This document shows, piece by piece, positions 72 through 5,068 of a stretch of DNA of 5,068 nt (within the stretch, counting starts at the first letter, position 1; each line of letters opens with the position of its first letter). The position numbers were made by a program, and so were the translations under genes. Origin of the DNA: a virus (Duplodnaviria; Heunggongvirae; Uroviricota; Caudoviricetes). The stretch lies in the IMG/VR virus record IMGVR_UViG_2671180254_000011; one strand, given 5' to 3'. Under the pieces are notes generated by a model. The model was not told the DNA's origin. It saw only the letters and a program-made list of their open reading frames with translations, and made no database searches.

Positions 72-300
72 ATATCAATGATTTTCTGGTGCGTACCGGG
101 TTGAGAAGCGGTGTAAGTGAACTGCAGTTGCCATGTTTTACGGCAGTGAGAGCAGAGATAGCGCTGATGTCCGGCAGTGCCTTTTGCCGTTACGTACCAC
201 CCCGTCAGTAGCTGAACAGGAGGGACAGCTGATAGAAACAGAAGCCACTGGAGCACCTCAAAAACACCATCATACACTAAATCAGTAAGTTGGCAGCATC
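72..300 (-). mobile_element. insA: IS1 left-end fragment, truncated (about the first 229 bp of IS1: terminal inverted repeat plus 5' part of insA), oriented on the minus strand
   Basis: Reverse complement of 278-300 is ggtgatgctgccaacttactgat, the IS1 left inverted repeat as I recall it. Reverse complement of 72-300 follows the IS1 left end through the insA region; the ORF-track fragment [37 protein letters not shown] matches InsA. Similarity to IS1 stops abruptly below position 72. There appears to be a 1-nt insertion relative to the IS1 I recall near 165-190, shifting the insA N-terminus out of frame. Confidence 0.85.
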
Positions 301-410
301 ACCGAAGTGGTAAAGAAGATAATAAAGAATAATATTTAGGGTTATAGGTCTTAGCCCATTTTAAATGGAAGGCAGACATGCAGCCATGCATACTTCGCAT
401 GGCAACATAA

Positions 411-752
411 TTATTTAGACAAACTATCTAATTTTTGCGTCGCTTTTTGTGTTAGGTCGCTGTAACTGATAAACCCTACGTTAGCACCTACAATTAACAC
501 TAAGAACACTAAGCTGCATATGGATAGAGTGGCAGATTTATGCTTATGGAAAACAAAATATGCTACTATTGCACTTAATATGAAGGAAATGAATAGAAAT
601 ATAGATGTTGATGTTTTTAGATATTTTTCAGGAAATAATGGGTGAGCAATAATGTATACAAGATTAAGTAGTATATAAATTGCTACCGGAATGAAAATCA
701 TGCTCCAGTGTGTATCTTTTTTGGGAGGGATTGGCTGCAAATAATCAGACAC
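411..752 (-). CDS. hypothetical small integral membrane protein (113 aa, three predicted transmembrane segments); function unknown
   Basis: 114-codon open frame in very AT-rich DNA, where stop codons are frequent by chance. Three hydrophobic stretches: WSMIFIPVAIYILLNLVYIIAHPLF, SIFLFISFILSAIVAYFVF, LSICSLVFLVLIVGANVGFI. Same strand as, and 82 bp downstream of, the 835-1212 ORF. Start is ambiguous: GTG at 752 or in-frame ATG at 701, neither with a strong Shine-Dalgarno. Confidence 0.55.
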   Translation of the reverse strand: MSDYLQPIPPKKDTHWSMIFIPVAIYILLNLVYIIAHPLFPEKYLKTSTSIFLFISFILSAIVAYFVFHKHKSATLSICSLVFLVLIVGANVGFISYSDLTQKATQKLDSLSK

Positions 753-834
753 CGTTTTTCCATCAGTTTCAAGAAGAATTACTAGATCTCTTACTTCACC
801 ACTGACTTGAGTGCATCCTTAGTAGTAATGTTAA

Positions 835-1212
835 TCATTTTTTCCCTCCAAATACGATGCCCTCTACGTCTTTGGAAGCTTTTTGTGATGACCACTCCTC
901 TGAATCAGGTGATTTAATTAAAAATATTGTATCTCCATCAAAAATCGTATTTGTTCCGTAAAAATTCACATTTGATAGATCACCACCAAAAACCCTCTGC
1001 CCACTCGAGGTAATTGCCTCACCTAATTTAGTAAAATTACCAGCAATAGATGATTTTCTTTTTCCACTTCTATTCAAAGTGGCTTTAATTACACCACCAC
1101 CATCCTTAGAGTTAAATAATTGAATGTCCACTCCAGCAGTTGGTTGTATATATTTTGAAAGCTCTTTCTTGAACTTGTTAATATATTTATCTTTGTTTTC
1201 TTTGTTGGTCAT
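835..1212 (-). CDS. hypothetical soluble protein (125 aa), lysine-rich N-terminus, glycine-rich core; function unknown
   Basis: 126-codon open frame in AT-rich DNA. No hydrophobic signal peptide or transmembrane segment. First gene of an apparent two-gene minus-strand unit. I do not recognise the sequence (MTNKENKDKYINKFKKELSKY...GIVFGGKK). Confidence 0.55.
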   Translation of the reverse strand: MTNKENKDKYINKFKKELSKYIQPTAGVDIQLFNSKDGGGVIKATLNRSGKRKSSIAGNFTKLGEAITSSGQRVFGGDLSNVNFYGTNTIFDGDTIFLIKSPDSEEWSSQKASKDVEGIVFGGKK

Positions 1213-2158: not shown

Positions 2159-2356
2159 NNNNNNNNNNNNNNNNNNNNNNNNNNNNNNNNNNNNNNNNNN
2201 NNNNNNNNNNNNNNNNNNNNNNNNNNNNNNNNNNNNNNNNNNNNNNNNNNNNNNNNNNNNNNNNNNNNNNNNNNNNNNNNNNNNNNNNNNNNNNNNNNNN
2301 NNNNNNNNNNNNNNNNNNNNNNNNNNNNNNNNNNNNNNNNNNNNNNNNNNNNNNNN
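2159..2356. other. run of 198 N (assembly gap or masked sequence)
   Basis: Uninterrupted N characters, seen directly. The run falls inside ybcO and removes the first 7 codons or so of rusA. Confidence 0.99.
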
Positions 2357-2920: not shown

Positions 2921-3304
2921 ATGCGTGATATTCAGATGGTTCTTGAGCGTTGGGGAGCGTGGGCGGCTAATAATCATGAAGATGTGACCTGGTCGTCCAT
3001 TGCCGCCGGTTTTAAGGGATTAATTACTTCAAAAGTAAAATCTCGCCCGCAATGTTGTGACGATGACGCGATGATTATTTGCGGGTGCATGGCCCGTCTG
3101 AAAAAGAACAACAGCGATTTGCACGATTTATTAGTAGATTATTATGTAGTCGGTATGACATTCATGTCACTGGCAGGTAAGCATTGCTGCTCTGATGGTT
3201 ATATCGGGAAAAGGTTACAGAAGGCTGAGGGCATAATTGAAGGGATGTTAATGGCATTAGATATCCGGTTAGAGATGGATATCGTTGTTAATAACTCTAA
3301 TTAA
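2921..3304 (+). CDS. quuD: Q-family late-gene antiterminator (phage 82 / DLP12 QuuD type, 127 aa)
   Basis: ATG at 2921 with GGAG 7 nt upstream. [33 protein letters not shown]...DIVVNNSN matches QuuD as I recall it. The ORF-track start at 2906 is a TTG-initiated upstream extension that I do not favour. Confidence 0.85.
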
Positions 3305-3319
3305 TATGCCAATTGTTTA

Positions 3320-3355
3320 CTAAAAATTATTAAAAATGGGGCGTTGCAACGCCCC
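3320..3355 (-). terminator. candidate rho-independent terminator for minus-strand (porin) transcripts
   Basis: GC-rich perfect palindrome ggggcgttgcaacgcccc (3338-3355). On the minus strand it is followed by the T-rich tract atttttaataattttta; on the plus strand it is followed by A-rich sequence, so it looks unidirectional. Confidence 0.5.
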
Positions 3356-3443
3356 CAAAAATAAAGGGTAATATATAACAGAAGGTTTATATAGTTAGAA
3401 GCAAGGTTGTGCTCCTAAAGGAAGTGGCTTGAGGGAGCCACTT

Positions 3444-3482
3444 ATATGTTGGGGAGGCAAAGCCTCCCGCAACATATCTTTT
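3444..3482 (+). terminator. candidate rho-independent terminator for plus-strand transcripts leaving the quuD region (tR'-like position)
   Basis: Arms atatgttggggaggc (3444-3458) and gcctcccgcaacatat (3462-3477) pair with one bulged C around an aaa loop, followed by cttttagt. Lies 11 bp from the porin stop codon. Confidence 0.45.
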
Positions 3483-3492
3483 AGTAATCAAA

Positions 3493-4575
3493 TTAGAACT
3501 GGTAAACCATACCTACAGCAACGATATCATCGGTAGCAACGCCAGATGCTTTCGTGAAATCGCTCTTATCAATCAGGTTGATTTTGTAATCAACAAAAGT
3601 GGACATATTTTTGTTGAAGTAATAGGTTGCACCTACATCAATATATTCAACCAGGTCCTGATCACCCCACGCACCCAAGTCTTTTCCTTTAGATTGCAGG
3701 TAAGCAACGGACGGACGCAGACCGAAGTCGAACTGATATTGTGCAACTACTTCGAAGTTTTGTGCTTTGTTGGCAATATGGTTATTACCAAAAACAGTCA
3801 TGTTCTGGGTTTCAGAATAGGTGGTAGCCAGATAGATGTTGTTCGCATCATATTTCAGACCAGCTGCCCATACTTCAGCATTTTGACCAGATGCATTCAG
3901 GCTGTTGTTACCGTAGATAACCTGATTATTAGTGCGGTCAGATTTAGCATAGGTTGCACCTACACCGAATCCTTCATACTCATAAGTAGTGGAGAAACCG
4001 AAACCATCACCATTAGCTTCAGTTACGTCAGTGCGGTCATTTTTACCCTGATACTGAGCAGCAAAGTTCAGACCATCAACCAGACCAAAGAAGTCGTTGT
4101 TACGATAAGTTGCAACACCAGTGGTGCGACCAGTCATGAACACATCTGTTTGAGTCCAAGTGTCACCACCGAATTCTGGCAGGACGTCAGTCCACGCACC
4201 GATGTCGTATGCTACACCGTAGTTACGGCCGTAATCGATGGAGCCGTAGTCACCGAATTTCAGGCCAGCGAAGGCAAGACGGGTTTTATCTTTGGAGGAA
4301 CCTTGAGATTCAGCGCGGTTGCCTTTGAATTCATATTCCCACTGACCGAAACCAGTCAGTTGATCGTTGATTTGGGTTTCACCTTTGAAGCCAAGACGGG
4401 CATAAGTAGTATCACCATCATCTGCATCATTAGAGGAGAAGTAGTGCTTAGCATTAACTTTCCCGTACAGATCCAGCTTGTTACTGTCTTTATTATAAAT
4501 TTCAGCTGCCTGAGCAGACATCGCCATCAGTACTGATGCAGCTACAGCAGAAATTGCCACTGTTAATTTTTTCAT
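3493..4575 (-). CDS. nmpC: outer-membrane general porin of the OmpC/OmpF/PhoE family, prophage-encoded NmpC/Lc type (360 aa precursor with signal peptide)
   Basis: Start assigned to ATG 4575 ([23 protein letters not shown] then [17 protein letters not shown]...), a typical signal peptide with AQA-A cleavage motif. Porin hallmarks are present: [58 protein letters not shown]-terminal VYQF. The 20-codon N-terminal extension in the ORF track (to 4635) is rejected. Confidence 0.9.
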
Positions 4576-4854
4576 CGTGAGCCCTTTTTTTGAACTATTA
4601 TTAAAAAATGATGTCATTGCGCGATAAATATTCATCTAATCAATGTGATTATTTCAAGATGTAAGTTTTGGTTTCTCGTTTGATTTGTGAAGTAGATCTC
4701 TATTTTTATCTGAACTTTTTTCTATCGAATCCTATTCATGGCTCTTGACTGAATAAAAATAAATCTATTAGCCAATTTATATTAACGGCTGTTATTTATA
4801 AGTGCTCTATAATTTGAAGGTTCAATTTAAACCGGCTAAAAATAACACTGGAAA

Positions 4855-4876
4855 TTATTTGTTGGTTATTTGTTGG
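4855..4876. repeat. 11-bp tandem direct repeat (ttatttgttgg x2)
   Basis: Exact adjacent copies at 4855-4865 and 4866-4876, in the AT-rich region about 280 bp upstream of the porin start. Confidence 0.5.
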
Positions 4877-4965
4877 GATTTGCTTATGTATTTGTAGTGG
4901 TGTTTTCAATACTCGGTAGCATTCTCGCAAATATCATTTAGTGGTTTACGTACGTAAAAAATTGG

Positions 4966-5068
4966 GGTAATGACTCCAACTTATTGATAGTGTTTTATGT
5001 TCAGATAATGCCCGATGACTTTGTCATGCAGCTCCACCGATTTTGAGAACGACAGCGACTTCCGTCCC
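4966..5068 (-). mobile_element. IS1 right end (right inverted repeat and adjacent 3' region), element continuing beyond the window end
   Basis: 4966-4988 reads ggtaatgactccaacttattgat, the IS1 right inverted repeat as recalled. The following about 80 nt (gtgttttatgttcagataatgcccgatgactttgtcatgcagctccaccgattttgagaacgacagcgacttccgtccc) match the complement of the IS1 3' region, so the IS1 body including insAB lies to the right on the minus strand. Confidence 0.9.

Follow-up and report, generated by a model that had tools for sequence, protein, structure and literature searches.

An intact NmpC/Lc/OmpD-type porin gene lies reversed between Q and the late promoter pR' of a DLP12-like prophage

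Does this prophage supply its host with a functional additional porin, and would the phage late programme run against the porin gene? Both questions are raised by a 5,068-nt stretch of DNA (IMG/VR record IMGVR_UViG_2671180254_000011), here called the window, in which a porin reading frame faces the gene for a Q-type antiterminator. The sequence-only reading had described a prophage-borne general porin of the NmpC/Lc type, uninterrupted from its signal peptide to the C-terminal VYQF motif and convergent with the Q gene, and had supposed that Q-antiterminated late transcripts pass antisense through it. The description of the gene stands on every point, and the matches behind it are real and far beyond chance, whereas the supposition about late transcripts fails on the position of the late promoter. 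Three features define the convergent pair:

2921–3304, plus strand: quuD, a Q-type antiterminator gene of 127 aa (Phage_antitermQ and Q alignments)
3493–4575, minus strand: nmpC/lc/ompD-type porin gene, 360 codons plus stop (open frame with translation)
4507–4575, minus strand: signal peptide segment of the porin gene, 23 codons, leaving a mature chain of 337 aa

According to the list of open reading frames, the minus-strand frame spans 4635 to 3493, with an internal ATG at 4575. Read from this ATG, the product is a 360-aa porin that continues into AEIYNKD after its first 23 residues and ends in VGMVYQF. The stop codon occupies 3493–3495, and with the ATG at 4575 it fixes the gene exactly at 3493–4575. 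Translation of the whole frame, together with family and homologue alignments, showed no frameshift or premature stop: the Pfam Porin_1 model (PF00267) matched end to end (model positions 1–337 of 337, E 3.1e-153), and alignment gave 91.4% identity to K-12 NmpC and 81.7% to Salmonella OmpD. The A-X-A cleavage site (AQA) and the AE(I/V)YNKD start of the mature chain are both present as sequence motifs. Since solved porins align over query residues 24–360, the mature N terminus is placed at A24, with the cut after AQA. The alternative frame from the ATG at 4635 would give 380 aa and is very likely an annotation artefact, because the signal peptide would then be buried inside the protein. Among database entries of 380 or 385 aa, some use this longer start.

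The surroundings are those of a DLP12-like prophage. The product of quuD covers Pfam Phage_antitermQ completely (1–118 of 118, E 3.5e-53), is identical to WP_001204791.1 and is 78–81% identical to Q of 933W and H-19B. It converges with nmpC, the two stop codons being separated by 188 bp. The gene order ybcN, ninE, ybcO, rusA, ylcG, quuD is that of K-12 DLP12 and of related prophages and phages, and a porin gene on the opposite strand between Q and the lysis genes is also found in K-12 DLP12, ETEC1747 and B1-56, with the same arrangement in phages PhiR34_1, ev099, Lambda_4C10 and Turner. Two small minus-strand genes at 411–1212 gave nothing with PADLOC, Pfam or NCBIfam except one sub-threshold Pfam match. 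The host lineage of this prophage remnant is probably Shigella sonnei.

Where the late promoter lies decides how the porin gene relates to the lytic programme. In lambda, 933W and H-19B, pR' follows directly after Q, and the 933W record annotates pR' (TTTACG-N16-TATCAT), a qut site and a terminator at the end of Q. The corresponding homologue, TTTACG-TACGTAAAAAATTGGT-TATGCT-GTTAAGAGTGGTTAC...ACCCGCCG..CGGGTTTTT, is present in K-12 and all related loci examined. It is flanked by the nmpC upstream region on one side and the holin gene on the other, has the orientation of the holin gene and points away from nmpC. The window retains its first half:

4945–4965, plus strand: remnant of the late promoter pR', comprising the -35 element TTTACG (4945–4950) and 15 nt of the 16-nt spacer

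The -10 element TATGCT, the qut-like segment and the terminator are cut off from the -35 by an IS1 element and fall outside the window; this second half of the module was found after IS1 in four of the related loci (L011, L017, L018 and L020). Because the sole pR' homologue lies beyond nmpC, late transcripts would begin ~380 bp from the nmpC ATG, on its upstream side, and head away from the gene.

The same comparison delimits a cassette. Homology of quuD to Q of 933W and H-19B fades after ...RLEMD, at codon ~120 (window position about 3281), which marks the left edge. Between that codon and the -35 of pR' lie ~1.66 kb, while in 933W and H-19B Q overlaps pR' directly. With Q homology ending at codon ~120 and pR' lying beyond nmpC, the segment from about 3281 to 4944 is thus inserted relative to the 933W layout. 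Going by these alignments, the nmpC cassette is absent from the same junction of 933W and H-19B, as would be expected of a moron. A moron is also expected to bring its own promoter and its own terminator, and both are assigned here, the promoter by K-12 homology and the terminator by prediction.

Based on these findings, we propose that the locus carries an intact lambdoid-prophage allele of the nmpC/lc/ompD group in a self-contained 1.66-kb cassette that is host-controlled and outside the late transcript, a reading to which we give a probability of about 0.85. The Sec signal peptide would export the porin and be cleaved after AQA. The mature chain would then fold into a trimeric 16-stranded β-barrel of the OmpC/OmpF/PhoE type, and an NmpC-type porin of this kind would be expected to serve the outer membrane as a general diffusion channel. 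The cassette itself would consist of a sigma-70 promoter region and a structured 3'UTR with a terminator, reversed between Q and pR'; because it would be self-contained and reversed in this way, the porin could be expressed from the resident prophage independently of Q. With the late promoter placed beyond the cassette and directed away from it, nmpC expression should be uncoupled from Q-dependent late transcription. Porins of this kind are already known, with prophage NmpC/Lc/OmpD known since the 1980s; the locus adds a corrected transcriptional geometry, the mosaic structure of the allele and an IS1 insertion in the pR' of the lineage.

The 3' end of the cassette lies in the spacer between the two convergent genes, where three features were located:

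3305–3492, minus strand: nmpC 3'UTR, a series of hairpins ending in an intrinsic terminator (fold, terminator scan)
3338–3355, minus strand: terminator hairpin GGGGCGTTGCAACGCCCC followed by ATTTTTAATAATTTTT (terminator scan, 7 pairs of which 6 GC, and fold)
3444–3477, plus strand: long 34-nt hairpin followed by CTTTT (fold, z = -5.7), just before the nmpC stop codon

RNA of the nmpC strand from the stop codon to ~3325 folds with a minimum free energy of -63.2 kcal/mol, compared with -32.6 for shuffled sequences (z = -8.3). The folded chain of 3' hairpins closes with GGGGCGUUGCAACGCCCC and a U-rich tail, at the same site that the terminator scan called, and we take the hairpin at 3338–3355 as the predicted end of the nmpC transcript. 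The 3'UTR differs from that of K-12 at 7 of 189 aligned positions. In K-12 DLP12 this region reportedly gives rise to the small RNA IpeX, a position attributed to Castillo-Keller et al. 2006. Searching all 5,068 nt against Rfam (E ≤ 1) returned no RNA family, hence no match to an IpeX model, so the identity of this 3'UTR with IpeX is a lead and not a result. DLP12 encodes IpeX as a repressor of ompC and ompF (PMC5069750).

With pR' directed away, antisense RNA linked to induction would need early rightward read-through past Q. Antiterminated polymerase of the early rightward operon would then continue through quuD and the hairpin at 3444–3477 into nmpC, by analogy with N-modified transcription from pR in lambda. 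The convergent arrangement across only 188 bp would allow this, and the plus-strand hairpin, with its short CTTTT tail, was not called by the terminator scan; by its fold it is possibly a weak terminator for transcripts leaving quuD. N-like antitermination is, however, hypothetical in this type of prophage, and because IS elements cut the prophage at the P gene in this lineage, the early operon is probably disconnected. In addition, a terminator placed experimentally between quuD and nmpC in K-12 apparently had little or no effect on IS5 transposition (PMC11677980). We consider antisense transcription from this source a minority prospect, perhaps one chance among several.

The autonomy of the cassette depends on the region upstream of the gene:

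4576–4944, minus strand: control region upstream of nmpC, containing PnmpC and the 5'UTR; AT-rich with 27–32% GC (K-12 homology)

Over ~390 bp upstream of the ATG, 385 of 390 positions are identical to the K-12 nmpC upstream sequence. The differences lie at -352, -301, -286, -173 and -42, the last being a single-base difference from both K-12 and ETEC1747. A promoter scan, at its threshold, called no sigma-70-like site in this region or in 3305–3492. According to PMC11677980, K-12 PnmpC lies within -199 to -1 and is an experimentally active sigma-70 promoter, with its start site mapped by 5' RACE. The same study lists activation by CRP, repression by OmpR, IHF and MprA, and control by small RNAs. 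The right-hand IS1, 391 bp upstream of the ATG, could alter this regulation.

An intact general porin gene with its own K-12-like promoter region makes a functional extra porin, a lysogenic-conversion moron, a reasonable reading. It is also the best-supported one, with expression in the source strain suggested by analogy to homologues. In E. coli CFT073, nmpC mRNA and protein are increased at 37 °C (PMC12890032). In Shigella flexneri, nmpC is induced anaerobically in a partly FNR-dependent manner (PMC4229854), and patient sera acquire reactivity to NmpC (PMC7809897). Excision of IS1 from nmpC of E. coli B restored expression and raised cefotaxime permeability (bioRxiv 10.64898/2026.08.19.745717). 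An additional general porin would be expected to alter outer-membrane permeability, including β-lactam entry, and may give the host a further antigen at its surface and a possible receptor for phages or colicins, so that receptor display could change as well.

The porin may instead be intact and quiescent, held off by H-NS, OmpR, IHF or the nearby IS1 and without a role in permeability. This is consistent with the 27–32% GC of the upstream region, with the repression by OmpR, IHF and MprA described for K-12 (PMC11677980), and with the term 'quiescent' applied to nmpC of E. coli B in the title of Prilipov et al. 1998. However, silence in E. coli B is due to an IS1 within the gene (bioRxiv 10.64898/2026.08.19.745717), which is absent here; transcripts from K-12 PnmpC are detectable (PMC11677980); and the CFT073 (PMC12890032) and S. 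flexneri (PMC4229854) copies are expressed. Silence in this host appears unlikely to us, slightly more so than early read-through.

Far less credible is the model built on the original supposition, in which nmpC belongs to a Q-dependent late unit and, on induction, Q-modified polymerase from pR' runs antisense and shuts the gene down. In its favour, nmpC occupies the interval from Q to the lysis genes in the opposite orientation, and pR' directly follows Q in lambda, 933W and H-19B. Nevertheless, the only homologue of the pR'-qut-terminator module is on the far side of nmpC and directed away from it. A 43-nt core of this module is identical (43/43) in seven loci, with one copy in each: K-12, the two E. 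coli ETEC1747 and B1-56, and the four phages PhiR34_1, ev099, Lambda_4C10 and Turner. Alignment of the 188-bp spacer with the 933W module, and a promoter scan, showed no second pR'-like site between Q and nmpC. The 933W annotation is in turn consistent with mapped transcription in Sakai Sp5. There, 264 nt separate the end of the TATCAT -10 from the end of the tR' T-run, and the RNA from PR' to tR' measures 258 nt by dRNA-seq and Term-seq (PMC7547250), which places the PR' start 7 nt after TATCAT, as expected. The porin gene is thus upstream of pR', whose homologue runs from 4945 onward, and outside the late unit. These results leave the supposition with very little room.

Both ends of the window are formed by insertion sequences:

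72–303, minus strand: IS1 fragment with the IRL end, 98.7% identical to K-12 IS1 positions 538–768, at the 3' end of replication gene P
4966–5068, minus strand: IS1 with the IRR end, 100% identical to K-12 IS1 positions 1–103, transposase genes co-directional with nmpC

On the left, homology to uninterrupted prophages begins at 303/304, so that the IS1 fragment bounds the prophage segment; bases 1–71 belong to an IS21-family element nested in this IS1. On the right, IS1 interrupts the pR' spacer at a point 391 bp from the nmpC ATG, upstream of the gene. An 8-bp target duplication, AAAATTGG, at 4958–4965 flanks a 768-bp IS1 in genomes with the same junction, and in these genomes TTATGCT resumes past IS1, with the qut-like segment and the terminator after it; the genes essD, lysozyme and spanin that come next are intact. 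Four assemblies, including the three complete chromosomes CP104423.1, CP029794.1 and CP151334.1, share the window's left and right IS junctions, and none of the four belongs to the complete E. coli set. Neither IS1 junction was present in any genome of the complete E. coli set, and an exact-match scan of contigs gave no match to the left junction. E. coli MS20675 has its own IS1, independently inserted 19 bp beyond this point.

The outward end of the right-hand IS1 supplies TTGGCA in place of the native -35 TTTACG, 17 bp away from TATGCT, the original -10, so a hybrid IS1-pR' promoter is possible. IS1 ends can reportedly create promoters, a finding attributed to Prentki et al. in 1986. We tentatively raise the prospect, which we ourselves rate as improbable, that IS1 in the pR' spacer has rewired expression of the holin, endolysin and spanin genes away from Q, as an IS-driven domestication of the lysis module; transposase read-through, directed in the sense orientation toward nmpC, may form part of the same event. 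If this were true, a domesticated DLP12-like lysis module would stand beside an intact porin moron in a heavily sequenced lineage.

The kind of porin follows from its relatives. Besides the end-to-end Porin_1 match, the solved porins OmpK37, OmpC, OmpK36, PhoE and OmpF match residues 24–360 (E 2e-137 to ~1e-116). Alignment with K-12 OmpF, OmpC and PhoE shows conservation of PEFGGD in L3, whose acidic residues correspond to D113 and E117 of OmpF, of the basic residues corresponding to OmpF K16, R42, R82 and R132, and of the C-terminal Phe. These positions are the important pore residues of the OmpF structure. AlphaFold2, given an alignment of 27 sequences, produced a low-confidence model (mean pLDDT 54, pTM 0.57), and the 16-stranded β-barrel expected for the protein therefore rests on homology to the solved porins. 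By sequence identity to NmpC and OmpD and by its canonical prophage position, the porin belongs to the NmpC/Lc/OmpD subgroup.

That the window might hold the host's own ompC can be set aside by synteny and identity: the protein does pass NCBIfam NF007841 'porin OmpC' (518 bits against a cut-off of 484) and RefSeq names identical proteins OmpC, but it is 63.5% identical to K-12 OmpC against 91.4% to NmpC, and its neighbours are quuD, rusA, ninE and the holin gene rather than the ompC-micF-rcsD locus. NF007841 is a 'subfamily' model and not an equivalog, and the RefSeq label 'porin OmpC' is, judged by these alignments, a family-level name that does not denote orthology. Phage annotators name the PhiR34_1-type porin OmpD. 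One source lists the exact protein as 'porin OmpD [Shigella sonnei]', and partial copies occur on S. sonnei contigs.

Both E. coli and Shigella commonly carry this allele. The identical 360-aa protein is WP_000737275.1, annotated as a porin in three complete E. coli genomes. PhiR34_1 and PhiR68_2, two temperate phages that have been isolated, encode a porin that is 100% identical as well, and a homologue occurs in 42 phage records. Of 5426 complete E. coli genomes, 3736 had a match to segment 3305–4967, with coverage of at least 80% in 2476. Relative to K-12 nmpC, the coding sequence is mosaic at the level of nucleotide alignment: nucleotides 1–420 are 98–100% identical, and beyond 420 identity varies from 65 to 95% in 60-nt blocks. 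(For the protein identity values, K-12 NmpC was rebuilt by removing IS5.) Amino-acid changes relative to K-12 NmpC concentrate opposite the indel-rich external loops of OmpF, OmpC and PhoE, which we take to be L4–L8 of the OmpF structure. Such clustering would fit the usual picture of recombination and surface-loop diversification.

Among known systems, the closest is NmpC of the K-12 prophage DLP12 (qsr'). It lies between quuD and essD in the same orientation and with the same flanks, shares 91.4% protein identity and 385 of 390 upstream positions, and has a near-identical 3'UTR. K-12 nmpC is interrupted near its 3' end by IS5, whereas the copy studied here is intact, and the K-12 protein has 365 aa compared with 360 aa for the present allele. 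The E. coli B copy is likewise disrupted, in that case by IS1 (bioRxiv 10.64898/2026.08.19.745717), and again differs in this from the intact gene of the window.

The Lc porin (protein 2) of phage PA-2 is the classic lysogenic-conversion porin and is reportedly linked to OmpC down-regulation and superinfection exclusion; its likeness to the present protein is suggested by source names. The name 'outer membrane porin protein LC' is given by several sources to the present protein or to ones closely related to it. Lc was described together with nmpC by Blasband et al. 1986, as cited in PMC11677980. Salmonella enterica OmpD is 81.7% identical and shares with the present allele the L3-region sequence FMTGRTTG, which K-12 NmpC lacks; ompD of Salmonella is treated as a major, abundant host porin (PMC3333887).

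OmpC, OmpF, PhoE, OmpK36 and OmpK37 are homologous over their full length (E 1e-120 to 2e-137) and carry the same hallmark residues, from which an OmpC/OmpF-type pore architecture is expected. They differ in their loops and locus, and OmpC, OmpF and PhoE are 62–65% identical to the window porin (63.5%, 62.0% and 64.5%, respectively, for the K-12 sequences). Finally, stx and other morons of 933W/H-19B-type phages resemble the nmpC cassette as cargo carried between Q and the lysis genes, in phages whose Q is 78–81% identical and whose pR' module is homologous. However, stx follows pR' and requires Q antitermination, whereas the nmpC cassette precedes pR', occupies the other strand and has a promoter of its own.

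The late promoter pR' is interrupted within its 16-bp spacer by an IS1 (window 4945-5068), flanked by an 8-bp target duplication, AAAATTGG. The same interruption is present in L011 (CP104423.1), L017, L018 and L020, the loci of assemblies that share the right IS1 junction of the window, where the holin, lysozyme and spanin genes beyond the element are intact. A TTGGCA motif contributed by the IS1 end lies 17 bp from the native -10 element, TATGCT, and as judged from these motifs the two may constitute a hybrid promoter. The transposase genes of this IS1 are oriented toward the porin gene nmpC, in its sense direction.

E. coli MS20675 (NZ_CP082056.1; L021, at ~2600) carries a separate IS1 located 19 bp further downstream in the pR' region, after ...TTATGCTGTTAAGAGTGG; it is followed by an ISAs1 element in place of the lysis genes. 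This is an insertion independent of the one in the window. In strain JNEC-KY204, IS1 is also found inside the equivalent of window 3305-4967. IS1 thus seems to have targeted this AT-rich region repeatedly.

An IS1 end also forms the left boundary of the prophage segment, which it interrupts at the 3' terminus of P, a replication gene:

Window 72-303: IS1 end, 232 bp, left boundary

Bases 1-71 of the window are not IS1. The corresponding bases of L011 run on into an element of the IS21 family, with rve and IstB genes, so the insertion elements at this boundary are nested.

Between P and ybcN, two small genes of low GC content lie on the opposite strand:

Window 411-1212, minus strand: genes for a 125-aa protein and a 142-aa predicted membrane protein

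Neither protein gave a significant match in Pfam, NCBIfam or PADLOC, and the pair, which is present in thousands of assemblies, looks like another moron with no assigned function. Relative to related prophages, the membrane-protein gene (411-838, minus strand) has lost 1 nt from codon 9 (GATGGCACT to GAT-GCACT), leaving an ORF of only 113 aa that starts with GTG at 752. S. sonnei records contain an annotated version of 113 aa, and the frameshift therefore appears typical of the S. sonnei lineage. Further along, a run of 198 N at window 2159-2356 masks ybcO in its 3' part and rusA in its first codons.

The nmpC gene of the window (3493-4575, minus strand) is a mosaic allele by sequence comparison. 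Near-identity to K-12 nmpC extends over the 390 bp upstream, the first 420 nt of the CDS and the 3'UTR, whereas the remaining two-thirds of the CDS is only 65-95% identical. This pattern suggests that recombination replaced the segment coding for the external loops. A further in-frame ATG, upstream at 4635, would extend the ORF to 380 aa, placing 20 additional residues (window 4576-4635) ahead of the signal peptide; this type of start, used by 380- or 385-aa database entries named 'porin protein LC', is probably mis-called. The 3'UTR (window 3305-3492, minus strand) is unusually structured (z = -8.3) and presumably corresponds to the IpeX sRNA region of DLP12, for which there is no Rfam family.

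The first hairpin 3' of pR' (ACCCGCCG....CGGGTTTTT) is common to 933W/H-19B and DLP12-type elements:

K-12 DLP12 locus (L004), ~11240-11290: first hairpin after pR'
Phage 933W (L009), 1983-2005: first hairpin after pR'

In Sakai, the mapped pR' RNA ends not at this first hairpin but at a second terminator, 258 nt downstream.
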